38,166 nucleotides of DNA from Nemertoderma westbladi. Lineage: Eukaryota; Animalia; Xenacoelomorpha. Of the stretch, positions 384-34,155 are shown one piece after another. Both the position numbers and the translations under genes were made by a program. Each line of letters starts with the position of its first letter. Position 1 is the first letter of the stretch. The notes beneath the pieces are model-generated. The model did no database searches. It saw only the letters and a list, made by a program, of their open reading frames with translations, and had not been told where the DNA came from. The DNA is taken from positions 1-38,166 of the forward strand of contig JAUCBJ010005446.1 in the NCBI GenBank assembly GCA_032718475.1, written 5' to 3'.

Positions 384-3020
384 ATATTTTACTCACACAA
401 CGCACTCATCGACCATGAATCGTACTGTACTTTACTATCATCGGGTTTGGTTGGATATTTTACTCACACAACGCACTCATCGTCCATGAATCGTACTGTA
501 CTTTACTATCATCGGGTTTGGTTGGATATTTTACTCACACAACGCACTCATCGTCCATGAATCGTACTGTACTTTACTATCATCGGGTTTGGTTGGATAT
601 TTTACTCACACAACGCACTCATCGTCCATGAATCGTACTGTACTTTACTATCATCGGGTTTGGTTGGATATTTTACTCACACAACGCACTCATCGTCCAT
701 GAATCGTACTGTACTTTACTATCATCGGGTTTGGTTGGATATTTTACTCACACAACGCACTCATCGTCCATGAATCGTACTGTACTTTACTATCATCGGG
801 TTTGGTTGGATATTTTACTCACACAACGCACTCATCGTCCAGGAATCGTACTGTACTTTACTATCATCGGGTTTGGTTGGATATTTTACTCACACAACGC
901 ACTCATCGTCCATGAATCGTACTGTACTTTACTATCATCGGGTTTGGTTGGATATTTTACTCACACAACGCACTCATCGTCCAGGAATCGTACTGTACTT
1001 TACTATCATCGGGTTTGGTTGGATATTTTACTCACACAACGCACTCATCGTCCAGGAATCGTACTGTACTTTACTATCATCGGGTTTGGTTGGATATTTT
1101 ACTCACACAACGCACTCATCGTCCAGGAATCGTACTGTACTTTACTATCATCGGGTTTGGTTGGATATTTTACTCACACAACGCACTCATCGTCCATGAA
1201 TCGTACTGTACTTTACTATCATCGGGTTTGGTTGGATATTTTACTCACACAACGCACTCATCGTCCATGAATCGTACTGTACTTTACTATCATCGGGTTT
1301 GGTTGGATATTTTACTCACACAACGCACTCATCGTCCAGGAATCGTACTGTACTTTACTATCATCGGGTTTGGTTGGATATTTTACTCACACAACGCACT
1401 CATCGTTCATGAATCGTACTGTACTTTACTATCATCGGGTTTGGTTGGATATTTTACTCACACAACGCACTCATCGACCATGAATCGTACTGTACTTTAC
1501 TATCATCGGGTTTGGTTGGATATTTTACTCACACAACGCACTCATCGTCCATGAATCGTACTGTACTTTACTATCATCGGGTTTGGTTGGATATTTTACT
1601 CACACAACGCACTCATCGTCCATGAATCGTACTGTACTTTACTATCATCGGGTTTGGTTGGATATTTTACTCACACAACGCACTCATCGTCCATGAATCG
1701 TACTGTACTTTACTATCATCGGGTTTGGTTGGATATTTTACTCACACAACGCACTCATCGTCCATGAATCGTACTGTACTTTACTATCATCGGGTTTGGT
1801 TGGATATTTTACTCACACAACGCACTCATCGTCCATGAATCGTACTGTACTTTACTATCATCGGGTTTGGTTGGATATTTTACTCACACAACGCACTCAT
1901 CGTCCAGGAATCGTACTGTACTTTACTATCATCGGGTTTGGTTGGATATTTTACTCACACAACGCACTCATCGTCCATGAATCGTACTGTACTTTACTAT
2001 CATCGGGTTTGGTTGGATATTTTACTCACACAACGCACTCATCGTCCAGGAATCGTACTGTACTTTACTATCATCGGGTTTGGTTGGATATTTTACTCAC
2101 ACAACGCACTCATCGTCCAGGAATCGTACTGTACTTTACTATCATCGGGTTTGGTTGGATATTTTACTCACACAACGCACTCATCGTCCAGGAATCGTAC
2201 TGTACTTTACTATCATCGGGTTTGGTTGGATATTTTACTCACACAACGCACTCATCGTCCAGGAATCGTACTGTACTTTACTATCATCGGGTTTGGTTGG
2301 ATATTTTACTCACACAACGCACTCATCGTCCATGAATCGTACTGTACTTTACTATCATCGGGTTTGGTTGGATATTTTACTCACACAACGCACTCATCGT
2401 CCATGAATCGTACTGTACTTTACTATCATCGGGTTTGGTTGGATATTTTACTCACACAACGCACTCATCGTCCAGGAATCGTACTGTACTTTACTATCAT
2501 CGGGTTTGGTTGGATATTTTACTCACACAACGCACTCATCGTCCATGAATCGTACTGTACTTTACTATCATCGGGTTTGGTTGGATATTTTACTCACACA
2601 ACGCACTCATCGTCCAGGAATCGTACTGTACTTTACTATCATCGGGTTTGGTTGGATATTTTACTCACACAACGCACTCATCGTCCATGAATCGTACTGT
2701 ACTTTACTATCATCGGGTTTGGTTGGATATTTTACTCACACAACGCACTCATCGTCCAGGAATCGTACTGTACTTTACTATCATCGGGTTTGGTTGGATA
2801 TTTTACTCACACAACGCACTCATCGTCCATGAATCGTACTGTACTTTACTATCATCGGGTTTGGTTGGATATTTTACTCACACAACGCACTCATCGTCCA
2901 GGAATCGTACTGTACTTTACTATCATCGGGTTTGGTTGGATATTTTACTCACACAACGCACTCATCGTCCATGAATCGTACTGTACTTTACTATCATCGG
3001 GTTTGGTTGGATATTTTACT
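384..3020. repeat. 71-bp tandem satellite, ~37 near-identical copies
   Basis: Unit ATATTTTACTCACACAACGCACTCATCGTCCA(T/G)GAATCGTACTGTACTTTACTATCATCGGGTTTGGTTGG repeated head-to-tail; variation is almost confined to one T/G site. Confidence 0.98.
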
Positions 3021-3584: not shown

Positions 3585-4503
3585 TGGTTGTACTGTAGTT
3601 ATTGGTCAGTGGGTTAATCGCACTTTTTTATTGGTTCCGATACATCTGAAATAAACAACAACAGTATGTAGCGCAGTCGGTGATGGCGTATTTACCATCG
3701 GACATACAGAATATGAGAAATATAAATAATTTAACATTGAATTACTAATTTTTTGTCCGTTTACTGACTTTTTGTGACACTTATTCTTGAAACTGTCAGT
3801 GCCTAGTCTATTTATTTCTGGACTGTCAGATAGTCGATTTGGTAGAACCCCCCCCCCCCCCCCCCCACCCCATATGTTTAACTTTTGATATTGAAAACTT
3901 GATTTTCTTCACATTTGGGTAAACTGAAAAGTGACACATAGCAGCAGAAAGTCTTGTAGTGATTCACGATCTAGTGGTACCCAAGGCGTACTACAGTACA
4001 TACTCTACTATATAGTACGCACGCCTTGGTGGTACACCTATGTTGTCATCGCTGCGCCCAGCCATAGGGGGACTTTGATGCGCCCATATTGTTCGGCTGG
4101 AATCTTAAATTTATTCTTTACTCCTTAAGGTGAATTTTATAGAAATTTGGGTCCTAAATAAACTCCCAAAAGAACCACCCAAAAGAACCAAATAGAACCC
4201 AAAATAACCTAAATTTGTTATAAACATTAGATTTTTACCTCCAAATCTGCTGGCAGACGTCCTTTTGCTGAGATTTTGTACCAACCATACTTGTGCTTGA
4301 ATCTATTCTTCGAATTAACTAACCTGGCTCTTAACCCGACTTAATAGAATACTGACATTCTACTGTAAGTTACTTACTAAGTCAGACTGTAAAACTCAAA
4401 CACACAGTAGTGGAAAGATACCAATAACTACAATACGTAGGCCTAATGTAACGTTAAGGCCTACGTAATTAACGTATCAGCTCTACAAACTTGTAGCGTT
4501 GAA

Positions 4504-7500
4504 GGGCCGCGGTTGGGAGGTTGGGAGGGCCGCGGTTAGGAGGGGGCATCTAAAGGGCCGCGGTTAGGAGGTTGGGAGGGTTGCGGTTGGGAGGTTGGGA
4601 GGGCCGCGGTTGGGAGGGGGCATCTAAAGGGCCGCGGTTAGGAGGTTGGGAGGGCTGCGGTTGGGAGGGCCGGGGTTGGGAGGGCCGCGGTTAGGAGGGG
4701 GTATCTAAAGGGCCGCGGTTAGGAGGTTGGGAGGGCCGGGGTTGGGAGGTTGGGAGGGTTGCGGTTGGGAGGTTGGGAGGGCCGCGGTTGGGAGGTTGGG
4801 AGGGCCGCGGTTAGGAGGGGGTATCTAAAGGGCCGCGGTTAGGAGGTTGGGAGGGCCGGGGTTGGGAGGTTGGGAGGGCCGCGGTTAGGAGGGGGTATCT
4901 AAAGGGCCGCGGTTAGGAGGTTGGGAGGGCTGCGGTTGGGAGGGCCGGGGTTGGGAGGGCCGCGGTTAGGAGGGGGTATCTAAAGGGCCGCGGTTAGGAG
5001 GTTGGGAGGGCCGGGGTTGGGAGGTTGGGAGGGCCGCGGTTGGGAGGGCCGCGGTTAGGAGGGGCATCTAAAGGGCCGCGGTCAGGAGGTTTGGAGGGCC
5101 GCGGTTGGGAGGTTGGGAGGGCCGGGGTTGGGAGGTTGGGAGGGCCGCGGTTGGGAGGTTGGGAGGACCGCAGTTGGGAGGTTGGGAGGGCCGCGGTTAG
5201 GAGGGGGCATCTAAAGGGCCGCGGTTAGGAGGTTGGGAGGGCCGCGGTTGGGAGGGCCGCGGTTAGGAGGTTGGGAGGGCCGCGGTTGGGAGGGCCGGGG
5301 TTGGGAGGTTGGGAGGGCCGCGGTTGGGAGGTTGGGAGGGCCGGGGTTGGGAGGTTGGGAGGGCCGCGGTTGGGAGGTTGGGAGGGCCGGGGTTGGGAGG
5401 TTGGGAGGGCCGCGGTTGGGAGGGCCGCGGTTAGGAGGGGCATCTAAAGGGCCGCGGTTAGGAGGGGGCATCTAAAGGGCCGCGGTTAGGAGGTTGGGAG
5501 GGCCGCGGTTGGGAGGTTGGGAGGGCCGCGGTTGGGAGGTTGGGAGGGCCGCGGTTAGGAGGGGGCATCTAAAGGGCCGCGGTTAGGAGGGGGCATCTAA
5601 AGGGCCGCGGTTAGGAGGTTGGGAGGGCCGCGGTTGGGAGGGCCGCGGTTAGGAGGTTGGGAGGGCCGCGGTTGGGAGGGCCGGGGTTGGGAGGTTTGGA
5701 GGGCCGCGGTTGGGAGGTTGGGAGGGCCGGGGTTGGGAGGTTGGGAGGGCCGCGGTTGGGAGGGCCGCGGTTAGGAGGGGCATCTAAAGGGCCGCGGTTA
5801 GGAGGGGGCATCTAAAGGGCCGCGGTTAGGAGGTTGGGAGGGCCGCGGTTGGGAGGTTGGGAGGGCCGCGGTTGGGAGGTTGGGAGGGCCGCGGTTAGGA
5901 GGGGGCATCTAAAGGGCCGCGGTTAGGAGGGGGCATCTAAAGGGCCGCGGTTAGGAGGTTGGGAGGGCTGCGGTTGGGAGGTTGGGAGGGCCGCGGTTAG
6001 GAGGTTGGGAGGGCTGCGGTTGGGAGGTTGGGAGGGCCAAGGTTGGGAGGGCCGCGGTTAGGAGGGGGCATCTAAAGGGCCGCGGTTAGGAGGGGGCATC
6101 TAAAGGGCCGCGGTTAGGAGGTTGGGAGGGCTGCGGTTGGGAGGTTGGGAGGGCCAAGGTTGGGAGGGCCGCGGTTAGGAGGGGCATCTAAAGGGCCGCG
6201 GTCAGGAGGTTGGGAGGGCCGCGGTTGGGAGGTTGGGATGGCCGGGGTTGGGAGGTTGGGAGGGCCGCGGTTGGGAGGTTGGGAGGGCCGCAGTTGGGAG
6301 GTTGGGAGGGCCAAGGTTGGGAGGGCCGCGGTTAGGAGGGGGCATCTAAAGGGCCGCGGTTAGGAGGTTGGGAGGGCCACGGTTGGGAGGTTGGGAGGGC
6401 CGCGGTTAGGAGGGGGCATCTAAAGGGCCGCGGTTAGGAGGTTGGGAGGGCTGCGGTTGGGAGGTTGGGAGGGCCAAGGTTGGGAGGGCCGCGGTTAGGA
6501 GGGGCATCTAAAGGGCCGCGGTCAGGAGGTTGGGAGGGCCGCGGTTGGGAGGTTGGGAGGGCCGGGGTTGGGAGGTTGGGAGGGCCGCGGTTGGGAGGTT
6601 GGGAGGGCCGCAGTTGGGAGGTTGGGAGGGCCGCGGTTAGGAGGGGGCATCTAAAGGGCCGCGGTTAGGAGGTTGGGAGGGCCGCGGTTGGGAGGTTGGG
6701 AGGGCCGCGGTTGGGAGGGGGCATCTAAAGGGCCGCGGTTAGGAGGGGGCATCTAAAGGGCCGCGGTTAGGAGGTTGGGAGGGCTGCGGTTGGGAGGTTG
6801 GGAGGGCCGCAGTTGGGAGGGCCGCGGTTAGGAGGGGGCATCTAAAGGGCCGCGGTTAGGAAGTTGGGAGGGCCGCGATTGAGAGGTTGGGCGGACCGCG
6901 GTTAGGAAGGGGCATCTAAAGGGCAGCGGTTAGGAGGGGGCATCTAAAGGGCAGCGGTTAGGAGGGGGCATCTAAAGGGCAGCGGTTAGGAGGGGGCATC
7001 TAAAGGGCAGCGGTTAGGAGGGGGCATCTAAAGGGCAGCGGTTAGGAGGGGGCATCTAAAGGGCCGCGGTTAGGAGGTTGGGAGGGCCACGGTTGGGAGG
7101 TTGGGAGGGCCGCGGTTAGGAGGGGGCATCTAAAGGGGCGCGGTTAGGAGGTTGGGAGGGCCGCGGTTAGGAGGTTGGGAGGGCCGCGGTTGGGAGGTTG
7201 GGAGGGCCGCGGTTGGGAGGTTGGGAGGGCCGCGGTTAGGAGGGGGCATCTAAAGGGGCGCGGTTAGGAGGTTGGGAGGGCCGCGGTTAGGAGGTTGGGA
7301 GGGCCGCGGTTGGGAGGTTGGGAGGGCCGCGGTTGGGAGATTGGGAGGGCCGCGGTTGGGAGGTTGGGAGGGCCGGGGTTGGGAGGTTGGGTGGGCCGCG
7401 GTTAGGAGGGGGCATCTAAAGGGCCGCGGTTAGGAGGTTGGGAGGGCCGCGGTTAGGAGGTTGGGAGGGCCGCGGTTGGGAGGTTGGGAGGGCCGCGGTT

Positions 7501-9553
7501 GGGAGGTTGGGAGGGCCGCGGTTAGGAGGGGGCATCTAAAGGGCCGCGGTTAGGAGGTTGGGAGGGCCGGGGTTGGGAGGTTGGGAGGGTTGCGGTTGGG
7601 AGGTTGGGAGGGCCGCGGTTGGGAGGTTGGGAGGGCCGCGGTTAGGAGGGGGCATCTAAAGGGCCGCGGTTAGGAGGTTGGGAGGGCCGGGGTTGGGAGG
7701 TTGGGAGGGTTGCGGTTGGGAGGTTGGGAGGGCCGCGGTTGGGAGTTTGGGAGGGCCGGGGTTGGGAGGTTGGGAGGCCCGCGGTTAGGAGGTTGGGAGG
7801 GCCGCGGTTGGGAGGTTGGGAGGGCCGCGGTTGGGAGGTTGGGAGGGCCGCGGTTAGGAGGGGGCATCTAAAGGGCCGCGGTTAGGAGGTTGGGAGGGCC
7901 GGGGTTGGGAGGTTGGGAGGGTTGCGGTTGGGAGGTTGGGAGGGCCGCGGTTGGGAGGTTGGGAGGGCCGCGGTTAGGAGGGGGCATCTAAAGGGGCGCG
8001 GTTAGGAGGTTGGGAGGGCCGCGGTTAGGAGGTTGGGAGGGCCGCGGTTGGGAGGTTGGGAGGGCCGCGGTTGGGAGATTGGGAGGGCCGCGGTTGGGAG
8101 GTTGGGAGGGCCGGGGTTGGGAGGTTGGGAGGGCCGCGGTTAGGAAGTTGGGAGGGCCGCGATTGAGAGGTTGGGCGGACCGCGGTTAGGAAGGGGCATC
8201 TAAAGGGCAGCGGTTAGGAGGGGGCATCTAAAGGGCAGCGGTTAGGAGGGGGCATCTAAAGGGCAGCGGTTAGGAGGGGGCATCTAAAGGGCAGCGGTTA
8301 GGAGGGGGCATCTAAAGGGCCGCGGTTAGGAGGTTGGGAGGGCCACGGTTGGGAGGTTGGGAGGGCCGCGGTTAGGAGGTTGGGAGGGCCACGGTTGGGA
8401 GGTTGGGAGGGCCGCGGTTAGGAGGGGGCATCTAAAGGGGCGCGGTTAGGAGGTTGGGAGGGCCGCGGTTAGGAGGTTGGGAGGGCCGCGGTTGGGAGGT
8501 TGGGAGGGCCGCGGTTGGGAGGTTGGGAGGGCCGCGGTTAGGAGGGGGCATCTAAAGGGGCGCGGTTAGGAGGTTGGGAGGGCCGCGGTTAGGAGGTTGG
8601 GAGGGCCGCGGTTGGGAGGTTGGGAGGGCCGGGGTTGGGAGGTTGGGAGGGCCGCGGTTAGGAGGGGGCATCTAAAGGGCCGCGGTTAGGAGGTTGGGAG
8701 GGCCGCGGTTAGGAGGTTGGGAGGGCCGCGGTTGGGAGGTTGGGAGGGCCGCGGTTGGGAGGTTGGGAGGGCCGCGGTTAGGAGGGGGCATCTAAAGGGC
8801 CGCGGTTAGGAGGTTGGGAGGGCCGGGGTTGGGAGGTTGGGAGGGTTGCGGTTGGGAGGTTGGGAGGGCCGCGGTTGGGAGGTTGGGAGGGCCGCGGTTA
8901 GGAGGGGGCATCTAAAGGGCCGCGGTTAGGAGGTTGGGAGGGCCGGGGTTGGGAGGTTGGGAGGGTTGCGGTTGGGAGGTTGGGAGGGCCGCGGTTGGGA
9001 GGGCCGGGGTTGGGAGGTTGGGAGGCCCGCGGTTAGGAGGTTGGGAGGGCCGCGGTTGGGAGGTTGGGAGGGCCGCGGTTGGGAGGTTGGGAGGGCCGCG
9101 GTTAGGAGGGGGCATCTAAAGGGCCGCGGTTAGGAGGTTGGGAGGGCCGGGGTTGGGAGGTTGGGAGGGTTGCGGTTGGGAGGTTGGGAGGGCCGCGGTT
9201 AGGAGGTTGGGAGGGCCGCGGTTAGGAGGTTGGGAGGGCCGCGGTTGGGAGGGCCGCGGTTGGGAGGTTGGGAGGGCCGCGGTTGGGAGGTTGGGAGGGC
9301 CGCGGTTGGGAGGTTGGGAGGGCCGCGGTTAGGAGGGGGCATCTAAAGGGCCGCGGTTAGGAGGGGGCATCTAAAGGGCCGCGGTTAGGAGGGGCATCTA
9401 AAGGGCCGCGGTTAGGAGGTTGGGAGGGCCACGGTTGGGAGGTTGGGAGGGCCGCGGTTAGGAGGGGGCATCTAAAGGGGCGCGGTTAGGAGGGGGCATC
9501 TAAAGGGCCGCGGTTAGGAGGGGGCATCTAAAGGGCCGCGGTTAGGAGGGGGA
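4504..9553 (+). repeat. G-rich complex satellite (~5 kb)
   Basis: Mosaic of GGTTGGGAG, GGGCCGCGGTT(A/G)GGAG and the 28-bp module GGGCCGCGGTTAGGAGGGGGCATCTAAA; extreme G/C strand skew. Confidence 0.97.
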
Positions 9554-10975: not shown

Positions 10976-11127
10976 GAGCAGCAGTAGTTCCAGTACTCCT
11001 CTATGGGAGTCCATACTGGGCTCTAACTGCTGAGGACACCAAATCTATGGATGGCACAAGGATGCTACGCCGGGTTCACTGTGTCAAGTACAATGAACAC
11101 ATCTCCAACCAGACACTATATAACATT
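10976..11127 (+). mobile_element. RTE-clade LINE fragment (C-terminal region)
   Basis: Translates AAVVPVLLYGSPYWALTAEDTKSMDG-RMLRRVH...HISNQTLYNI, closely matching 14345-14512. Confidence 0.85.
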
Positions 11128-11340
11128 ATTGATAGTAACAATGTGTTGGCAAGCTGTATTTTTCGAGGTATTTGTTATTATACATTTATTATAGGAAGGG
11201 ATCTTGGGGTCTTAGCCTCGAATGATAAGTTTATTTTACCGAAAATAACTTATCTTTTATTGGCGCAATTGTAGGACTAATCCCATCACAGGGCTAATAA
11301 AATGGCAGCTGGCTTTGAAATTAATACTCCATATCTCAAG

Positions 11341-11402
11341 AACCTGTGGCCTAGTGGTTGTAGTCTCGGCTTCCACCTCGAGGTCCCAGGTTCGAATCCG
11401 AC
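11341..11402 (+). promoter_or_regulatory. tRNA-derived (Gly-TCC-like) Pol III head: A box + B box
   Basis: A box TGGCCTAGTGG 11347-11357; anticodon-arm remnant CTCGG-CTTCCAC-CTCGAG; B box GGTTCGAATCC 11389-11399. The acceptor stem is not intact. Confidence 0.8.
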
Positions 11403-11445
11403 ACCACGCTGATGAGACCCAGTAAGGTCGAAACGCGTACGTGGT
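11403..11445 (+). ncRNA. Minimal type I hammerhead ribozyme
   Basis: Stem I ACCACG/CGTGGT (6 bp perfect); core CTGATGA 11409-11415; stem II GACC-cagtaa-GGTC; GAAA 11430-11433; palindromic mini stem III ACGCGT; cleavage triplet GTA 11437-11439. Confidence 0.9.
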
Positions 11446-11536
11446 TTGGAGAGATATGAGATATTAATTTCAAGAAAAAATTACGCGATTCCTAAATTTG
11501 TACACTACCCGGTTAAAAAGTACGCTTTGGCTTATG

Positions 11537-11745
11537 CTTTGGCAGCCTTATTGAGTGAATAAGCATGGTGGACAGCCCATGACTTTCTTGAGACGCATCT
11601 TAAAAAAGGACACTGGCCTTGAAGATGCGGATGATCTAGCAAATGTCATATGTGTGATAGGGAGTTGTGGCGGCGCAATTTTGTCGACAGGCCGGCACAG
11701 CATTCTTGAAAATGCAGCTGCAATGCAGCATGCCGATCCTAGTAG
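11537..11745 (+). mobile_element. RTE-clade LINE 3' end fragment
   Basis: NKHGGQPMTFLRRILKKDTGLEDADDLANV; near-identical to 14618-14805. Confidence 0.85.
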
Positions 11746-11759
11746 TTTGGTGGGACCCT

Positions 11760-12443
11760 TTCAGGTCAAATGGAAATAAGTGACGCTGAACCAAGGCTAT
11801 TTATTAGACAGTGCAAGAATCGAAATCATTAGGTTTCACCAAGGCTCCCGTCGCTATGCAGTAAGGGATGCGAGAGAAGGACCTTGAAAGAGTTGTGCGA
11901 GGAGTGAGGCGGCGTCTGCAGTTCGTGCTCCTCCAGAAGAGCTCACTGTACCTTCGTGGCAGTCGGCGATCAAGGCACACCCTGGGATCGTCGATGGAGA
12001 GCTGACATGCGGGGATAGGACAGTGCAACGCTGTATTATAGGGGATACATACTGCAATTAGAAATTACCTCACAAACTCTGCGCAGAAAGAGTCCCGACT
12101 CAAACAGACTACAGCGGCCAAGAATGCAGTTAAGGCTGCATCTAGGTCCCTGAACAGGCAGTACTCTGTTATTCTACAGGAGCTAATAAACCAACAGGTT
12201 GATGCCATCAATGATGCTGACGACAGCAGGCAATCATCCCAGGCATGGAAATCGATCAACTTGCTTACTGGGCGGAAAAGCCAACCAACCACCAAGGTTA
12301 AGGCTGAATCACCAGCCGATCGCCTCAATGGTTGGAAGGCCCACTTTGAAAAGCTCCTCAATAATGACAGGGTATTGCCTGATAACTTTATAGAAGTAAA
12401 AGTGTCTGAGTCTGTACTCCCAGATATTCCCATTGGCGATATC
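11760..12443 (+). mobile_element. RTE-clade LINE fragment (linker upstream of RT)
   Basis: Frame reads QAWKSINLLTGRKSQ...RLNGWKAHFEKLLN, typical of the region before the RT in LINE ORFs. Its last 88 bp recur at the start of the RT copy (13144-13231). The 5' boundary is approximate. Confidence 0.75.
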
Positions 12444-12756
12444 ACTTAAACATTTAGAAGAGAATGATGAAAATAAAGAAGAGATATTGAGACAAATATT
12501 AGGAAACAAAAATCAAATGCGGAAATTTATTAAACAAATGGAAGAAAATGAGGAAAATAGGGAAGAGATATTAAGACAGGTTCTGGGAAATAAAAGTAAA
12601 TTACTGAAAATTAATGAACAATTGAATAAAATTAAGAAACAGTTGGGTAATGAGGAAGATGAAAGTAAAGTAAATCAACCAGCTTTTACTAATTTTCAAA
12701 GACCTATGATAAAAAACTCTCGTTCAGTATATGCCCGCGCAGGACGACGCTATTGA
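12433..12756 (+). CDS. Orphan coiled-coil ORF with internal peptide duplication (start uncertain)
   Basis: EENDENKEEILRQILGNK and EENEENREEILRQVLGNK repeat in frame; located between two RTE pieces. Confidence 0.35.
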   Translation: MAISLKHLEENDENKEEILRQILGNKNQMRKFIKQMEENEENREEILRQVLGNKSKLLKINEQLNKIKKQLGNEEDESKVNQPAFTNFQRPMIKNSRSVYARAGRRY

Positions 12757-12783
12757 CATTTGTTTGTTTGAGTTCCTTTCATA

Positions 12784-12893
12784 ATAGTATTAGGGCTATT
12801 TATCCAAAACAATTATATTAGTATTAGGACTATTTATCCATAACAATTATATTAGTATTAGGACTATTTATCCATAATAATTATATTAGTATT
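12784..12893. repeat. 34-bp tandem repeat, ~3 copies
   Basis: TAGTATTAGGACTATTTATCCATAACAATTATAT repeated with few substitutions. Confidence 0.8.
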
Positions 12894-13143
12894 ATAAATG
12901 TATTTACCCCACAATATTTATTATTATTAGGTCTATTTATTCAAGAAATTATATGTTTTTATCATATACTTTGCAAAAATTGGTCGACTAAGTCATAATT
13001 TTTAAAATTTAAATAAGGGTTGAGTTATTTTATAAAGTTAAGAAGAGTGAATCAATGGAGGCAACCTGAAGTCTAATCTCTTGGCCTTTACTCATAAGAC
13101 CGCACATTAACTTCCAAGGTTGCATACTCAATAATGAAGGAAG

Positions 13144-14810
13144 CCTCAATAATGACAGGGTATTGCCTGATAACTTTATAGAAGTAAAAGTGTCTGAGTC
13201 TGTACTCCCAGATATTCCCATTGGTGATATCTCCTTTGCAGAAGTGAAGGCTGCTGCAAAGAGCATTAAGACCAATCAATCGTGCCAGTGGAATAGATGG
13301 TGTTCCCCCTGAGGTCTTTAAAATACCTGAGTGTTTAAAGCTCATCTATCCTATCATAGTAGACATGTACCGAACAACAAGAGTCCCGCAAGAAATGAAA
13401 ACAAATAAGTTGGTGCCAGTTCCCAAGAAGGGCAACCTAACCCTCTATGGTTCTTTTCGGGGAATCTCATTGATCTCGATTGCTGCAAAGCTATACAATT
13501 GAATTCTATTAAATCTCATCAGGGATTCCATTGAGAGACTGCTCCTTGGAAATCAGAATGGGTTCCGTAAAGGTCGTGGGACCATGGAGCCCATTTTGGC
13601 ACTTAGAAGGATAATTGAAGAGTTATCAAAAAAGAAAGACAGGCATCTGGCTATTATATTTGTTGACTTCTTCAAGGCCTTTGATTCAGTCTCTCGCTCA
13701 CGTATGTTCAGCATACTTTCATTATATGGGATTCCTGATGAAATTATTGCAGCAATCAGATCAGTACACGATGGTTCGACAACATTTGTGTCTACTGTTG
13801 ACGGTGACATAGAACCATTTGAAGTGTTATGGGGCGTCTTCCAGGGAGACACACTTGCACCATTATTGTTCATAATTGTGGTTGACTATGTTCTACGCAT
13901 GTCATTAGATCATCATAATGATGATTGGGTGATGATAACTCCACCTACTGGCTCCAGAAGTCGAGGAAATCCTGCCAAGTACCAAACTGATCTAGACTTT
14001 GCTGATGACTTAGGAGTACTCTCAGAATCACTAGAGGGAGCCCAACGGCTCCTCAGCTCATTAGAACATGCTGCTTCTAGTGTTGGTCTTTTTATTAACT
14101 CCAGAAAGACCAAAATTTTGACAGTTGACTTTGAAAGTCCTCAGCATGTCTCAGATCGGATGAGCATAAGCTCAAAGGACGGTATGCTTGAGCATGTAGA
14201 CAACTTCTGTTACCTGGGATAAAGGATCCGGAAGTCAGATGAGGACCTTCGAATACGTAAGGGAAGGGCATGGGCAGCCTTGAATAGGCTTTCCAGGATT
14301 TGGAAGTCACCGAGAAATAATCGGAAACTTAAGGTCCGATTATTTAGAGCAGCGGTAGTTGCAGTACTCCTCTATGGGAGTCCATGCTGGGCTCTAACTG
14401 CTGATCAGCTGATGACACAAAATCTCTGGATGGCACATTCACAAGAATGCTACGCCGGGTTCATTGGGTCATGTACAATTCACACATCTCCAACCAGACA
14501 CTATATAACATTGGAGGTGTCTCATTGATTCCCCCAAGCTTGACACTAGAACAAAATCGCCTCCGCTTTGCAGGTCATTGCTTTCGCCGTGATGACCAGC
14601 CAGTGCATAATCTTGTACTTTGGCAGCCTCATGGAGTGAATAAGCATGGTGGACAGGCCATGACTTTCTTGAGACGCATCTTAAAAGACACTGGCCTTGA
14701 AGATGCGGATGATCTAGCAAATGTCATGGCGGCGCAATTTTGTCGACAAGCCGGCACAGCATTCTTAAAAATGCAGCTACAATGCAGCATGCCGATCCTA
14801 GTAGCATTAT
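13144..14810 (+). mobile_element. 5'-truncated, disrupted RTE-clade non-LTR retrotransposon (reverse transcriptase pseudogene)
   Basis: Motifs VPVPKKGNL..FRGISLISIAAKLYN, QNGFRKGRGT, FVDFFKAFDSV, GVFQGDTLAPLLF, DLDFADDLG, FCYLG, LLYGS, RLRFAGHCFR. An in-frame stop near 13500 and downstream frameshifts disrupt it. Confidence 0.93.
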
Positions 14811-16723
14811 ACACACCTATTTCGTTCTTTTGGGTTCTTTTGGGTGTTTTTTGGGTTCTATTGGGTTCTTTTAGGTGGTTCTATTGGGTTCTTGTAGGTG
14901 GTTCTATTGGGTTCTTTGGGGTATTTTTTGGTTCTTTTGGGAGTTTAGTAGGACCGTAGAAATTTTACTAATTTACCATTCTCATTTTAATTATTAATTC
15001 GCACATTTGTAACTTTTCAGGGTCGATATCGAATGACTTCTGTTGCAAAAACAAAGGGCGGCATTTAATTTGTGAGAATGGAATTTGCACAAAACCCATG
15101 GAAGAGTATTAGAAAAAACAAAGTTATAAATAATTTAATAACTTTACGACCGGCCATAACTAGTGGATAACTTTATTTACGTGGCACTCAACAGTGGTAG
15201 ATGTTGTGTTAATTATTGTATAATATGGTTTAATATACAATGTCAAAAAATTTAGCTGGAAATAAGTTGCGATAAATATATGACATTTTTAATGACTTTA
15301 ATGACATTTAATATTTCTTTAAATGTCATTTTTAATGTTATTTTGTGAGATAGTTAACTGTAATTTCTGCCGCGAGTTAACATTATTTGGGTTGGCAGTT
15401 TTGGTTCATTGTATATTCCAACTAATTAACTACAAGTCATACTTCAACCTTAAATAATATAGACTTTATTTTATACCTTATTGTATTGAAAGAGTACCGG
15501 TAGAGTTGCACAAAATTGAGCTTTTATGTATTAGACAGACAGACCTGACAACCGTTCCGATATACACAGAAAATAGTTGCAATAATGATCTGGTCTGATC
15601 TGATTATTTTCTTAATAATATAATTCGAGCTTCTTCGGTGTGTTATTGATAAATAGCTTTCAGCCGATAAAAACAAAAACATGCGTCTTTTGAACTCATC
15701 AACTTACTCAACGAAATTCAGATGTCTTTACAGATCATGGCATCTCGCATCAATCTATCAATCTCACCATGTTGGACTGGTTCGATAGTGAATAAGTCTC
15801 GAAGACACCGCAATGCAAGCCCGACAGATAGTAGGCTGACCTACAGTATAACTCATTGGCTTTATCTTTTATTGATCAAAGATATTACCATATAGAAATT
15901 GCTCGCTAATTGGCAGATTATAAAATCGATAACTTTCATTAGTAAAGACCAAAATCGAATTTTACTTATATTTTAAGTCATTAGAATGATAACTAGAACC
16001 TCATAAGACGAAACTGTAGAATTATTATTACGCAGGTACGGTAAATGTGAACAATACATTAAGTACACAATATATTAATCAGCAGCATCATTGTATTATT
16101 ACTATTTAATCAACTACGCGTAATAGGGAAAAACTATTATTCGTATTCCATAATATTATTTTTTCCCTTTACTGTATTTATAATTAAATTTGTCAACAGC
16201 AGTAGGCCTATAAATTACTAACTATTTATTTACTACTTTGAAAATAAATGAGCTTTATTTCCCTACGAACCCGAGATGTATAATTCACGAGCGGCACCGA
16301 GTGAAATAAACATCAAGGGGGTTGTAAGGGAAATATATCTGTTGGTTTTTCAAGTAATACGTTTTAACTTCTTAATTTTGACTTTCATCTCTTGAATTGA
16401 GGTTCAGTGTGCCGCATTTGATTCTTCCACATCGTCCGATGTTAAGAGTTTTGTGTAGCTGCATTCCCGCCGCATTCCCGCCGCATTCCCGCCGCGTTTC
16501 CGTAGTTGTGTTTGAACACAACCGGTACACAGTAATATGGCTATCCCAGCTTTATCTAGGTTCTCGAATCCTTAATCCCGCGAAATACCGATAAAGTAAA
16601 TCACTTGCATTTCTAGGTTAGGCATAAATCTCGGACCCGGATATAACTTATTTTTAAAGTTGATAGAGAGCGGGGTATAGAAAGGCAATTTTGAAAAGAA
16701 ACATTAATTTACGTGACTTTAGA

Positions 16724-17106
16724 ATGGGCAATTATATAACCAAACACAAAAAAAATAGGAACAGTTTGCAGAAAGGCAAATGTCATCTATTGGACACATC
16801 AGAAAATCTCGAGACCCCAAGTGAATTTAAATTTAGCGATGGTGAAACACAACGCAGCAGTGCTATAAGAGATCGAAGTCCGAACGCAGTTGGATGTCAA
16901 GGTGATGCTTGTAACGAATCTCAAACGAAATCTGGAAGTCATAAATGGAATAAAGAAACCATATGGAGTGCCGAGTTTCACCAATCAGCAATGAACCCAG
17001 AATCATTCAGAGAACATGGGAAACATATGGTAGATTACATCGCCGATTATGTGAACAATCTCAGAAACAAAAAGGTTTTAAGTACAGTTCAACCGGGTTA
17101 TCTAAG
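16724..17106 (+). CDS. Ddc: AADC/DOPA decarboxylase-like, exon 1 (conserved start MNPESFREHGK at 16991; in-frame upstream ATG at 16724)
   Basis: MNPESFREHGKHMVDYIADYVNNLRNKKVLSTVQPGYLR; GT donor at 17107. Confidence 0.85.
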
Positions 17107-17251
17107 GTACGTATCTATCTAATACATCCTACTATCTACATGGGAGTTCATTTTACCAGCACACACGTGATATTATATTCATTTCTTATGCCGGCATAGC
17201 GTATGACACACAGAGAAGTCAGACTTTCATGTAAAGTATTTGTGTTCTCAG

Positions 17252-21916: not shown

Positions 21917-22033
21917 GTATGTGTTTTAGAGTTTTATAATATGTTATACAATAATAGGAGTTATATAAATTATTAGAGAAGTAATTTATAGATTGATACT
22001 TACTATATTTTATTACGATTCCGCTCGGGTTAG

Positions 22034-22223
22034 GATCAGGAGGAAACGTGATTTAGAGTCGGCGTTTGTGGTTTCTCCGCTCTATCTGCAACACCCTCAA
22101 CAAAATGACGTCACTGATTACAGGCACTGGCAGATACCACTGGGTAGGAGATTCCGATCTCTCAAGATATGGTTCGTACTCCGGATGTTTGGTATAAAGG
22201 GACTACAGGAATATATTCGGAGG
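22034..22223 (+). CDS. Ddc: Ddc-like exon 7
   Basis: SPLYLQH...DYRHWQIPLGRRFRSLKIWFVLRMFGIKGLQEYIRR; catalytic-loop Tyr and the DDC-type Gly in LGRRFR. Confidence 0.94.
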
Positions 22224-22396
22224 GTGAGTCTCAGCTACTTGATATTTGTTCTATTTATTTATGTGAAATTAGTAGCAATATACTGACTTTGGGGGCCTAT
22301 TTTTATTGAATGAATCACTATGGCAAACATTAGAGACTTACACCCCACAAACAACAAAAAAATATACAGATTAGGACAGTACTAAGCCACTAGTGA

Positions 22397-24756: not shown

Positions 24757-25060
24757 CCAGCCTGTACACAATCTTGTACTTTGGCAGCCCCAAGGAGAAA
24801 ATAAGCATGGTGGATGACTTTCTTGAGACGCCTCCTAAAGGACACCGGCCTTGAAGATGCGGATAATCTTGCGAAAGTCATGGTGGATAAGGAGTTGTGG
24901 CGGTGTAACTTTGTTGATAAGCCGGCATAGCATTCTTAAAACACGCTGCGTTGGGCTTGCTAATTATTGTGGATTGCATGGTCATGGCAAAAATATTCTT
25001 GTTCAGCCGGCATAGCATCTCAATGTGCAGCTTCAATGCAGCAGTCCGATTATATTATAG
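24757..25060 (+). mobile_element. RTE 3' end fragment (continuing from ~23697-23731)
   Basis: QPVHNLVLWQPQGENKHGG..TFLRRLLKDTGLEDADNLAKV, matching 14597-14800. Confidence 0.85.
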
Positions 25061-26817: not shown

Positions 26818-27949
26818 TCACGTGACGGGATCCAGGGTAACGATGAGTTCGTTATCCCCCACTGTATCTCCGACAGCCAAGTGAATGGAGGCCACGACGC
26901 CAGCGGTTTCCGCCAGCAAGGAGTTTTGCATCTTCATTGCCTCGACGACGCAGACCTCCTGTCCCGGAACGACCCGCTGCCCCGGTTCCACGGACACCGA
27001 TATCAGCGAGCCGGGCATCGGGGAGCGAACCTCGAGGCCGGAGTTCGTCGCGTCCCGTCGCGACGGCATGGTCGCTAGGTAACCGTGGTAACGGGCGTCC
27101 ATGGCGTGGCAACGGAATGCGGTCCCGTGGTAACGCAGGGAGACAGCGCCGTCGGAGTGCCGCTCCAACAGCTGCATGAGAAGCGACGACTCGTTAACAA
27201 CCAATGGAATCGCCCCGTCATCGACGGAGAAATCGTGGATGAGAAACTCCTCGTTGTCGATCCGAACCCGGAAGATCCCGTCCACAAACCGAACCTCCGC
27301 CAACGGTGACTCACCCTCGAGCATAACAACCACCAACCAATTGCTCGTAGACTTAGAATAGGAGCTCACTGATTGGTTAATAAATTCTGAGGAGTTAATT
27401 TCACCTTTAATATAGAAACAAGCGGCTATAGCAGCGAGTTGGTAAACCTCGTAAGGGCTTAGTCGCTTCCCTTTGAAACCGTCCGGGTAGACAAGTTGCA
27501 GATAGTCTGTGGTGACGTCACCAGCGATAAAGCGCTCTTCCACGAGGATGTCTCGGAGGAGCGCCACGTTGTGGAGGAGTCCGCGGATGACGTAGCGATC
27601 CAAGGCCTCGCAGGAGGTCCGCAACGCCTCCGTGCGGTTCACGCCGTAACCCACGAGTTTGGAGATCATGCTATCGTAGTAGATGGAAATCTCGGAACCC
27701 TCGTCGACGCCGCCGTCGACTCGGACGTTGGGCATGTCGGGCTCGATGTACCGGTGCAGTCGTCCCACCGACGGGAGGCCGAAGCTACGGTACGGGTCCT
27801 CCGCGTATACGCGGCACTCTACCGCGTGGCCCTTGAGCTGCACGTCGGATTGGCTGTATTCCAGAGGTAAACCTCTACCGACTCGCAACATCTGGTAAAC
27901 TATGTCGATCCCCGTCGTACATTCCGTTATGGGATGCTCCACCTGCAAT
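26818..27949 (-). CDS. PCCA: Propionyl-CoA carboxylase alpha chain, terminal exon (biotin carboxylase C-term, BT and biotinyl domains)
   Basis: LQVEHPITECTTGIDIV...GHAVECRVYAEDPY.SFGLPSVGRL...GSEISIYYDSMISKL...RSPMPG...VVEAMKMQNSL (biotinylation motif AMKM); acceptor TTAG directly upstream. Confidence 0.93.
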
Positions 27950-28161
27950 CTAATTATAATTGCTGAATGAATATAATATAATATTACTAATTATTCATTA
28001 TGAATAATTTTCAGCAATTTATTTTTGACTTTTCTCAAAAAAAGGTATAATAAAATATATACCATTTGGTACACCCGCCAATTTGTATTTTGAAAATTTT
28101 AACAGAAAATCCGATCGGTTATTGGAAATAAGTGCAATATTATGGTTTTGTTCAGAAATGG

Positions 28162-28469: not shown

Positions 28470-28912
28470 TACCATCTCGATTGCTGCAAAGCTATACAAT
28501 AGAATTCTATTAAATCGCATCAGGGATCCCATTGAGAGACTGCTCCAAAGCCATATCCTCTTGCAGGACATTGCTTTCGCCGTGAGGACCCCCAGCCAGT
28601 GCATAATCTTGTACTTTGGCAGCCTCATGGAGTGAATAATAATGGTTGACAGCCCATGACTTTCTTGAGACGCATCTTAAAGGACACTGGCCTTGAAGAT
28701 GTGGATGATCTAGCAAATGTCATGGGCGATAGAGAGTGTTGTGGCGACGCAATTTTGTTGACAAGCCGGCACAGCATTCTTAATGTACGCTGCATTGGAG
28801 CATACCAATTATTGTGGATAAAAATTGCTTGGTGGTGACAAAATGTTTTTATTAAACTGGCATAGCCTCTCAATGTGCAGCTGCAATGCAGCAGGCCGAT
28901 TATAGTAGTAGT
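28470..28912 (+). mobile_element. Internally deleted RTE derivative in a PCCA intron (antisense to PCCA)
   Basis: ISIAAKLYNRILLNRIRDPIERLL (equivalent to 13473-13546) is joined to the 3' region (equivalent to 14568-14805), omitting about 1 kb of RT core. Confidence 0.85.
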
Positions 28913-29108: not shown

Positions 29109-29287
29109 CTAATGAAATAATTGAATTGTAAGTATTACAACTACCGGTGTGTAACACAATAACAGGTACATAGATGTTTTGAAAAATTAAGATAATAAGG
29201 TAGGCTAGTGAAAAAGCAACACATTGAGGAATAACAATCTACAAATCGATTAACTAAGATATCTTAAGTACTCCCAATGTTCAATAT

Positions 29288-29366
29288 ATCTAGCTCAGTT
29301 GAAGAGTTATCACACGGCCTGTGAGATGCCGCTGGTTCGAAACCAGGTCCCAGCGATCATTTTTTG
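29288..29366 (+). mobile_element. tRNA-derived SINE head / tRNA pseudogene
   Basis: A box TAGCTCAGTTG (29291), B box GGTTCGAAACC (~29334-29344), T-run terminator ~29360-29366; no intact cloverleaf and no hammerhead core. Confidence 0.55.
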
Positions 29367-30822: not shown

Positions 30823-33800
30823 CAGTGAGTTCACCTGATTGGTTAGCAGTGGGATGTATTAACAGTGCAGTAGGTCACCGTGGGATGCATTAACAGTGCA
30901 GTAGGTCACCGTGGGATGCATTAACAGTGCAGTAGGTCACCGTGGGATGCATTAACAGTGCAGTAGGTCACCGTGGGATGCATTAACAGTGCAGTAGGTC
31001 ACCGTGGGATGCATTAACAGTGCAGTAGGTCACCGTGGGATGCATTAACAGTGCAGTAGGTCACCGTGGGATGCATTAACAGTGCAGTAGGTCACCGTGG
31101 GATGCATTAACAGTGCAGTAGGTCACCGTGGGATGCATTAACAGTGCAGTAGGTCACCGTGGGATGCATTAACAGTGCAGTAGGTCACCGTGGGATGCAT
31201 TAACAGTGCAGTAGGTCACCGTGGGATGCATTAACAGTGCAGTAGGTCACCGTGGGATGCATTAACAGTGCAGTAGGTCACCGTGGGATGCATTAACAGT
31301 GCAGTAGGTCACCGTGGGATGCATTAACAGTGCAGTAGGTCACCGTGGGATGCATTAACAGTGCAGTAGGTCACCGTGGGATGCATTAACAGTGCAGTAG
31401 GTCACCGTGGGATGCATTAACAGTGCAGTAGGTCACCGTGGGATGCATTAACAGTGTAGTAGGTCACCTGATTGGTTAGTAGTGGGATACATTAACAGTG
31501 CAGTATGTCACCTGATTGGTTAGCAGTGGGATACATTAACAGTGCAGTAGGTCACCTGATTGGTTAGCAGTGGGATACATTAACAGTGTAGTAGGTCACC
31601 TGATTGGTTAGCAGTGGGATACATTAACAGTGCAGTAGGTCACCTGATTGGTTAGCAGTGGGATACATTAACAGTGCAGTAGGTCACCGTGGGATGCATT
31701 AACAGTGCAGTAGGTCACCGTGGGATGTATTAACAGTGCAGTAGGTCACCGTGGGATGCATTAACAGTGCAGTAGGTCACCGTGGGATGCATTAACAGTG
31801 CAGTAGGTCACCGTGGGATGCATTAACAGTGCAGTAGGTCACCGTGGGATACATTAACAGTGCAGTAGGTCACCGTGGGATGCATTAACAGTGCAGTAGG
31901 TCACCGTGGGATGCATTAACAGTGCAGTAGGTCACCGTGGGATGCATTAACAGTGCAGTAGGTCACCGTGGGATGCATTAACAGTACAGTAGGTCACCGT
32001 GGGATGCATTAACAGTGCAGTAGGTCACCGTGGGATGCATTGACAGTGCAGTAGGTCACCGTGGGATGCATTAACAGTGCAGTAGGTCACCGTGGGATGC
32101 ATTAACAGTGCAGTAGGTCACCGTGGGATGCATTAACAGTGCACTAGGTCACCGTGGGATGCATTAACAGTGCAGTAGGTCACCGTGGGATGCATTAACA
32201 GTGCAGTAGGTCACCGTGGGATGCATTAACAGTACAGTAGGTCACCGTGGGATGCATTAACAGTGCAGTAGGTCACCGTGGGATGCATTGACAGTGCAGT
32301 AGGTCACCGTGGGATGCATTAACAGTGCAGTAGGTCACCGTGGGATGCATTAACAGTACAGTAGGTCACCGTGGGATGCATTAACAGTGCAGTAGGTCAC
32401 CGTGGGATGCATTGACAGTGCAGTAGGTCAGTGTGGGATGCATTAACAGTGCAGTAGGTCACCGTGGGATGCATTAACAGTGCAGTAGGTCACCGTGGGA
32501 TGCATTAACAGTGCAGTAGGTCACCGTGGGATGCATTGACAGTGCAGTAGGTCACCGTGAGATACATTATTAACAGTGCAGTAGGTCACCGTGGGATGTA
32601 TTAACAGTGCAGTAGGTCACCGTGGGATGTATTAACAGTGCAGTAGGTCACCGTGGGATGCATTAACAGTGCAGTAGGTCACCGTGGGATGCATTAACAG
32701 TGCAGTAGGTCACCGTGGGATGCATTAACAGTGCAGTAGGTCACCGTGGGATGCATTAACAGTGTAGTAGGTCACCTGATTGGTTAGTAGTGGGATACAT
32801 TAACAGTACAGTAGGTCACCGTGGGATGCATTAACAGTGCAGTAGGTCACCGTGGGATGCATTAACAGTGCAGTAGGTCACCGTGGGATGCATTAACAGT
32901 GCAGTAGGTCACCGTGGGATGCATTGACAGTGCAGTAGGTCACCGTGAGATACATTATTAACAGTGCAGTAGGTCACCGTGGGATGCATTAACAGTGCAG
33001 TAGGTCACCGTGAGATACATTATTAACAGTGCAGTAGGTCACCGTGAGATACATTATTAACAGTGCAGTAGGTCACCGTGGGATGTATTAACAGTGCAGT
33101 AGGTCACCGTGGGATGCATTAACAGTGCAGTAGGTCACCGTGGGATGTATTAACAGTGCAGTAGGTCACCGTGGGATGCATTAACAGTGCAGCAGGTCAC
33201 CGTGGGATGTATTAACAGTGCAGTAGGTCACCGTGGGATGTATTAACAGTGCAGTAGGTCACCGTGGGATGCATTAACAGTGCAGTAGGTCACCGTGGGA
33301 TGCATTAACAGTGCAGTAGGTCACCGCGTGGGATGTATTAACAGTGCAGTAGGTCACCGTGGGATGCATTAACAGTGCAGTAGGTCACCGTGGGATGCAT
33401 TAACAGTGCAGTAGGTCACCGTGGGATGCATTAACAGTGCAGTAGGTCACCGCGTGGGATGTATTAACAGTGCAGTAGGTCACCGTGGGATGCATTAACA
33501 GTGCAGTAGGTCACCGTGGGATGCATTAACAGTGCAGTAGGTCACCGTGGGATGCATTAACAGTGCAGTAGGTCACCGTGGGATACATTAACAGTGCAGT
33601 AGGTCACCTGATTGGTTAGCAGTGGGATACATTAACAGTGCAGTAGGTCACCTGATTGGTTAGCAGTGGGATACATTAACAGTGCAGTAGGTCACCGTGG
33701 GATACATTAACAGTGCAGTAGGTCACCTGATTGGTTAGCAGTGGGATACATTAACAGTGCAGTAGGTCACCTGATTGGTTAGCAGTGGGATACATTAACA

Positions 33801-34155
33801 GTGCAGTAGGTCACCGTGGGATACATTAACAGTGCAGTAGGTCACCTGATTGGTTAGCAGTGGGATACATTAACAGTGCAGTAGGTCACCTGATTGGTTA
33901 GCAGTGGGATACATTAACAGTGCAGTAGGTCACCGTGGGATACATTAACAGTGCAGTAGGTCACCTGATTGGTTAGCAGTGGGATACATTAACAGTGCAG
34001 TAGGTCACCTGATTGGTTAGCAGTGGGATACATTAACAGTGCAGTAGGTCACCTGATTGGTTAGCAGTGGGATACATTAACAGTGCAGTAGGTCACCTGA
34101 TTGGTTAGCAGTGGGATACATTAACAGTGCAGTAGGTCACCTGATTGGTTAGCAG
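30823..34155. repeat. 31-bp satellite with a 44-bp variant (~100 units) filling a PCCA intron
   Basis: Unit GTGGGATGCATTAACAGTGCAGTAGGTCACC; the variant adds TGATTGGTTAGCA. Confidence 0.98.

Follow-up and report, generated by a model that had tools for sequence, protein, structure and literature searches.

A likely Pol III-driven hammerhead retrozyme with a tRNA-Gly-like head in an abundant ~411-bp repeat of animal DNA

A hammerhead ribozyme motif joined directly to the 3' side of a tRNA-Gly-like sequence raises the question of what its self-cleavage would serve: the formation of a 3' end by a route other than Pol III termination or RNase Z processing, or the release of monomers from multimeric transcripts. 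Both possibilities were put forward in the initial annotation of such a fusion in Nemertoderma westbladi, where it was treated as a feature of 105 bp. The whole stretch of DNA analysed (38,166 nt of contig JAUCBJ010005446.1), referred to here as the window, is repeat-rich animal DNA with satellites, reverse transcriptase, a pyridoxal decarboxylase exon and an open reading frame similar to propionyl-CoA carboxylase alpha (PCCA). The 105 bp proved to be the middle of a ~411-bp unit, 401 bases of which are present in the window as a single copy at 11125-11525 (Table 1). The element at 11340-11450 is likely the promoter-plus-ribozyme module of this abundant non-coding repeat, which most probably is a non-LTR retrozyme driven by Pol III and built like Sm-alpha. 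The parts of this explanation that rest on observation are the length of the unit, its head-to-tail junctions in DNA, its high abundance, the intact hammerhead motif, and the inversion and LINE insertion of the window copy. The combination of a tRNA-like promoter with a hammerhead has a precedent in blood flukes, and the element reveals no new route to tRNA ends.

Seven public runs contain the stretch or part of it. Four of these were compared (X1, X2, X4 and X5), out of a set that also includes X7, a sediment run with a small share, and runs of organisms C and D. X1, X2 and X5 are DNA runs from three studies, X1 possibly being the source of the window itself. No run listed as containing the stretch is recorded as RNA, an outcome without weight in either direction. 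X4, a putative RNA run under another organism label, is represented by two contigs and is not counted as evidence of transcription.

Table 1. Coordinates of the window copy, its flanks and the features of the repeat unit.
Feature	Position in window	Strand	Evidence
Left flank, LINE-type reverse transcriptase fragment	10976-11127	+	blastn, 84% to 14347-14512; RVT_1 in upstream ORF of the other copy
Inverted part of the window copy, 166 nt; in family order it follows 11525 in the hammerhead sense	11125-11290	-	Opposite-strand joint
Only run of four T on the sense strand of the unit, ~232 nt after tRNA +1; possible leaky Pol III terminator	11242-11245	-	Sequence
Directly oriented part of the window copy, 235 nt: 49 nt upstream of the head, head, hammerhead and 86 nt past the cut	11291-11525	+	Even depth in X1, X2 and X5; covered entirely by X4 record 17
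5' arm of the long-range helix, upstream of tRNA +1	11315-11337	+	22 of 24 columns match the reverse complement of 11451-11473
tRNA-Gly-like head, tRNA positions 1-72	11340-11409	+	Weak to moderate sequence likeness; predicted hairpin, not cloverleaf
A box	11347-11357	+	Sequence
Remnant of an anticodon arm, which includes TCC (11372-11374) and an extra base	11365-11382	+	Identical run of 14 bases plus CGAGG against the annotated tRNA-Gly(TCC) of L100
B box	11389-11399	+	Sequence
Type I hammerhead motif, predicted cut between 11439 and 11440	11403-11445	+	Motif scan, Rfam, shuffles, folding
Palindromic stem III hexamer, permitting a double (dimeric) hammerhead	11433-11438	+	Cofold
3' arm of the long-range helix, just past the ribozyme	11451-11473	+	Pairs with 11315-11337
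Right flank, continuation of the left-flank LINE after a gap of ~99 bp	11531-11745	+	blastn

The A box, TCC loop and B box attributed to the head are all present. The A box agrees with the consensus of Pol III type 2 promoters, and the TCC is situated in a 7-nt loop (11370-11376). The head was not recognised as a tRNA: ARAGORN called no tRNA gene, no Rfam tRNA match was listed at E ≤ 10, and neither the T stem nor the acceptor stem shows any pairing. The CCA that had been placed at the tRNA's 3' end occupies positions 67-69, and positions 74-76 are GAT (numbered from T54 at 11391). In the predicted fold, the first seven bases of the head (11340-11346) pair with 11387-11393, which overlaps the 5' part of the B box, giving seven of seven possible pairs at a pair probability of 1.0. 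This complementarity of the 5' end of the head to the B box region would leave 11397-11408, and with it the old 3' acceptor strand (putatively 11403-11409), free for stem I, 11397-11408 being predicted to enter an 11-bp helix with one bulge. Judged from the folding, the head would be a promoter and not a tRNA, a cloverleaf being impossible in the models. The 5' strand of stem I is probably derived from the old 3' acceptor strand of the head, C72 of the tRNA having become C3 of the ribozyme core. The first base of the core coincides with tRNA position 72, which places the fusion, but not the cut, at the tRNA end.

Among the 30 rows listed of 52 matching records, 25 are tRNA-Gly, largely from one phage clade (best E 0.04). 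Among tRNAs in the loci compared, C70-G71-C72 as in the element was found in five of five tRNA-Gly and in one of 39 others. A glycine origin of the head is therefore likely on sequence grounds, as judged against prokaryotic and phage reference tRNAs only. The alignment with the tRNA-Gly(TCC) of L100 is no independent test, because L100 was picked as the best match.

The hammerhead said to cut after GUA at 11439 was confirmed as a motif. The strict pattern occurs once in 9500-30800 and in none of 300 dinucleotide shuffles; with relaxed criteria, the mean was 0.037 motifs per shuffle. Rfam gave no match in the window at gathering thresholds, and a search with the 401 nt of the copy matched HH9 at E 1.4e-4 and 26.6 bits, which is under the gathering score of 52. 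The motif consists of a 6-bp stem I (11403-11408/11440-11445), extended by five pairs (11397-11401/11446-11450), core bases 11409-11415, a 4-bp stem II (11416-11419/11426-11429) with a 6-nt loop, and GAAA at 11430-11433. With an A at the end of loop II and a U at position 1.7, the usual hammerhead tertiary contact would be possible. The CUGANGA, GAAA and NUH core elements, helix I of 6 bp, helix II of 4 bp and a short palindromic helix III are those of canonical metazoan type I hammerheads, for which the palindromic dimer pattern is also described in PMC4209133.

The motif is not the perfect stand-alone minimal hammerhead it had been taken for, since stem III has only one pair (A-U), which closes a palindromic tetraloop at a cost of 5.2 kcal/mol in the monomer. 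The minimum of the cofold is a double hammerhead, at -42.7 kcal/mol as compared with 2 x -17.2 kcal/mol.

Contigs that match the unit number 4332 in X1, 1715 in X2 and 112 in X5, with similar depth over the head, ribozyme and body. Summed depth in X1 is 2-8e5 across 11130-11525, which is not a copy number, and single listed contigs have depths of 17-45; a rough estimate would put the family at the order of 1e4 copies. X4 record 17 is 441 nt long, spans both parts of the unit and has a 30-nt terminal overlap, which indicates a 411-nt unit closing on itself; such a self-closing contig also arises from tandem DNA, so that it does not distinguish a circle from a tandem. In the DNA contigs, the head-to-tail junction was found as loose ends in nine X1 and three X2 contigs and as one joint in X5, with an A-rich linker at the junction. 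The GC content of the two parts of the unit is 0.447 and 0.325, which together with the type I hammerhead and the non-coding length agrees with the retrozyme definition (150-450 bp, GC <50%). The ~411-bp head-to-tail unit and the favoured double hammerhead support the initial suggestion that monomers may be released from multimeric transcripts.

Sequences upstream of tRNA +1 and just past the ribozyme are complementary, and a helix as good as 11315-11337/11451-11473 was found in none of 5000 shuffles. If formed in RNA, this helix would need a read-through or circular transcript. The fold z score was -5.2 for the body alone and -4.4 for the circular unit (none of 100 shuffles each), as compared with -3.0 for the antisense, -2.9 for the arrangement in the window itself and +1.5 to -2.5 for six background tiles. 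With controls this low, the strand specificity of the fold signal does not suffice as proof of selection on RNA. In the circular fold, 60% of bases are paired; for other metazoan retrozymes, >70% pairing is quoted in PMC4918200.

The earlier remark that no T4 follows directly on the cut is true of all of 11291-11525, and hence of the 86 nt past the cut. It carries little weight, as T runs are not significantly scarce in the unit (P 0.56 for T4 and 0.69 for T5), and T-run depletion was rejected as a sign of Pol III read-through. Read-through is thus assumed, the unit having one T4 and T runs not being depleted beyond chance.

The window copy departs from the family order. Its positions 11290 and 11525 are joined on opposite strands in 17 contigs of X1, four of X2, and one each of X4 and X5; therefore the copy is inverted there relative to the family. 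With its unit broken by the inversion, this copy can probably no longer act as a source. At least ten further head-to-head joints at other points are among the joints listed (15 and 12 rows, with 52 and 29 more beyond the listing), each in one contig per run and with sides of ~23-28 nt where given; they hint at recurrent inversion in the family. The copy is inserted in a LINE that we take to be RTE-like, with loss of ~99 bp of the target and no target-site duplication at this locus. Twin priming is a known cause of such inversions. Inverted truncated copies are described as typical of Penelope-like insertions in PMC8557442. The LINE belongs to one young family present in the window as several fragments (10976-11745, 12042-14804, 24757-25057 and 28474-28909) that are 80-99% alike.

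The tandem junctions could also have arisen at the DNA level, by unequal crossover or segmental duplication of a satellite-like repeat in which the promoter and ribozyme are relics and the 23-nt inverted repeat is a duplication without a role in RNA. This explanation is improbable, though it would accommodate a fold signal present partly on both strands as well as the altered core of X5 record 24 (window 11364-11472). In this 1831-nt contig of depth 401, three core positions of the head-hammerhead piece are changed, suggestive of a dead copy that was amplified as part of a larger repeat. In most copies, however, the core is kept, the changes listed for it in X1 making up 0.37% of depth at 11411, 0% at 11431 and 0.02% at 11438. 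The X1 differences that reach 5% (11170, 11205, 11214, 11215, 11475 and 11492) are all six outside the head and ribozyme, though six sites within ~70% of the unit are not significant; in a family this homogeneous, conservation of the core is not separable from that of the flanks. The dispersed, inverted insertion of the window copy in a LINE and the other head-to-head joints, single contigs per run with short sides as they are, also speak against amplification of a satellite.

If the family were instead a standard SINE of tRNA origin, A-rich at its tail and moved by the LINE, this would account for the A-rich linker and the T4 at ~232 nt, and for the abundance of the LINE in public contigs, which is about equal to that of the element. 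The hammerhead would then merely trim or destabilise a Pol III transcript, and the head-to-tail junctions would be occasional dimers. Inversions are known from LINE-driven insertion too. The chance that the family is of this kind appears small. Depth in X1 is 5.1-6.9e5 upstream of tRNA +1 and 5.2-7.1e5 inside the head; the upstream part therefore travels with the element, whereas a primary Pol III monomer would not carry it, and it pairs with the sequence behind the cut. In addition, blastn (word size 7) gave no match between the unit and any LINE copy of the window, and at the window locus a 99-bp target deletion is found in place of the target-site duplication of a classical tRNA SINE.

A short tRNA-like RNA whose 3' end is formed by the hammerhead, with neither Pol III termination nor RNase Z and in the manner of theta ribozymes on phage tRNAs, is very unlikely. 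The start of the core at tRNA position 72, the 100-nt 5' product that any self-cleaving Pol III transcript would yield and the lack of a T4 within 86 nt of the cut would agree with such a role. The cut, however, falls 30 nt beyond position 72, so that the catalytic core stays with the 5' product; the head is devoid of acceptor and T stems and received no tRNA call from ARAGORN or Rfam; the repeated unit is 411 bp and not 100; and none of 99 candidate matches in viral and metagenome contigs was a convincing tRNA-hammerhead fusion. These matches to a pattern of B box plus core (7 viral and 92 metagenome) failed the stem filter in 98 cases, and the remaining one passed with a stem II of 1 bp only; the exact ribozyme pattern was absent from the viral contigs. 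A role in tRNA processing is thus largely refuted by the distant cut, the missing acceptor and T stems and the 411-bp unit. Theta ribozymes resemble the element in that a self-cleaving motif abuts tRNA-like sequence on its 3' side. The parallel drawn with them initially fails because, according to PMC10879173, the theta fold is HDV-like and its cut lies within 5 nt of the 3' end of a genuine tRNA, in a phage context.

The likeness to Sm-alpha, also pointed out at the start, was borne out. In Sm-alpha and Sj-alpha of Schistosoma, a Pol III promoter is followed by a hammerhead in tandem repeats that are cut from multimers (PMC6765202, PMC2770079, PMC8490949). As in the element, a tRNA-type Pol III promoter precedes the type I hammerhead of Sm-alpha, and the unit is several hundred bases long (335 bp as compared with ~411 bp) and occurs in tandem at high copy number; cleavage is described as leaving the promoter at the 3' end of the monomer (PMC6765202), which is also the arrangement predicted for the element. 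Sm-alpha differs in having a full tRNA-Gln (PMC4918200, PMC2770079) in place of a Gly-like head without a cloverleaf. The probable donation of the 3' acceptor strand of the head to stem I would also set the element apart from Sm-alpha as described. Sm-alpha is the named tRNA-bearing exception among metazoan hammerhead repeats in PMC4918200, and retrozymes are otherwise said in PMC7761336 to harbour no promoters. Non-LTR retrozymes so described thus differ from the element, which has A and B boxes; they share with it the type I hammerhead, a tandem unit of 150-450 bp and GC <50%, and have a self-paired monomer, as is predicted to a lower degree for the element (PMC7229834, PMC7761336, bioRxiv 10.64898/2026.07.22.740005).

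The one-pair palindromic stem III has a counterpart in the axolotl HHR_Amex1, which is described as cleaving well only as a dimer (PMC7229834). Hammerheads of Penelope-like elements likewise show a short palindromic stem III, dimer-dependent cleavage, which is predicted here for the element, and inverted truncated segments (PMC4209133, PMC8557442). They are of the minimal type, whereas helix I of 6 bp and helix II of 4 bp in the element are canonical, and the element has no ORF. Further background on hammerhead elements is available in PMC10886601 and PMC6309819. In the literature searched, with repeat databases and most subscription papers outside its scope, no description of a tRNA-Gly-headed hammerhead repeat was found. 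As judged by its sequence, the element would function like Sm-alpha and shows the hammerhead type, unit length, GC content and head-to-tail copies of a retrozyme, yet appears to lie outside the Sm-alpha family, with a head of Gly type.

As a Pol III-driven retrozyme, the repeat would be propagated as follows. At a tandem locus, Pol III would start at the equivalent of 11340, directed by the A and B boxes, and would partly read past the single T4 into the next unit. Two hammerheads could then pair via the palindromic stem III and cut, giving a 411-nt monomer that starts at the equivalent of 11440 and has the head and core at its 3' end. A host ligase of the RtcB type may close the monomer into a circle, in which the head and ribozyme would be presented on the long helix. 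A reverse transcriptase acting in trans, most likely that of a Penelope-like element, would copy circles or multimers into DNA, and such reverse transcription could give rise to tandems as well as to permuted, partly inverted, dispersed copies like that in the window. Descriptions of this cycle exist for Sm-alpha (PMC6765202) and metazoan retrozymes (PMC7229834), and bioRxiv 10.64898/2026.07.22.740005 describes reverse transcription in trans by a Penelope-like element.

The family is a real, and by prediction probably active, ribozyme repeat of known design with a different tRNA head. If a family that is young, homogeneous, very abundant and provided with another tRNA head holds up as such, it would show that the promoter-ribozyme design arose more than once, and it would offer a clean test of Pol III read-through, dimer-gated cutting and reinsertion. 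More speculatively, hammerhead retrozymes may have captured tRNA genes repeatedly, at least twice in this genome (in the 411-bp unit and in an unrelated unit at 28256-28162), and the 411-bp unit might be a natural self-promoting cassette for the expression of circular RNA, with helix I and C3 of the ribozyme made out of the 3' acceptor strand and C72 of a tRNA-Gly. In that case, Pol III-driven retrozymes would be a widespread, overlooked class of SINE mobilised by Penelope-like elements and not a schistosome oddity.

The unit at 28256-28162, on the minus strand, is a second tRNA-hammerhead fusion, with an A box at 28256-28245, a B box at 28195-28187 and a T6 run at 28167-28162. Its hammerhead core (28235, 28215) replaces the anticodon arm, stem II has an extra base and for that reason did not pass the stem filter of the motif scan, and no sequence, including the tail, is shared with the 411-bp unit. 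A B-box-like sequence with a possible A box upstream, a T run behind and no hammerhead is located at 29275-29345 and is maybe a decayed tRNA-derived SINE.

The window further includes two coding regions. An intronless GC-rich frame of 390 amino acids on the minus strand (26818-27990) is PCCA-like, with 42-50% identity to the best 120 matches listed, which are from animals where named; it may be a retrocopy, or else a long exon from a lineage that is poorly sampled. Segments 16667-17122 and 21969-22286 are probable exons of a spliced pyridoxal-dependent decarboxylase, the second assigned by Pfam PF00282 and the first by eye. Three satellites were also observed: a 71-bp array at 384-3020 with 99% matches over 37 copies, a 31/44-bp composite satellite at 30849-34155, and a G-rich 23-bp satellite at 4503-9465 composed of telomere-like GGTTAGG and GGTTGGG units with a strong GC skew.
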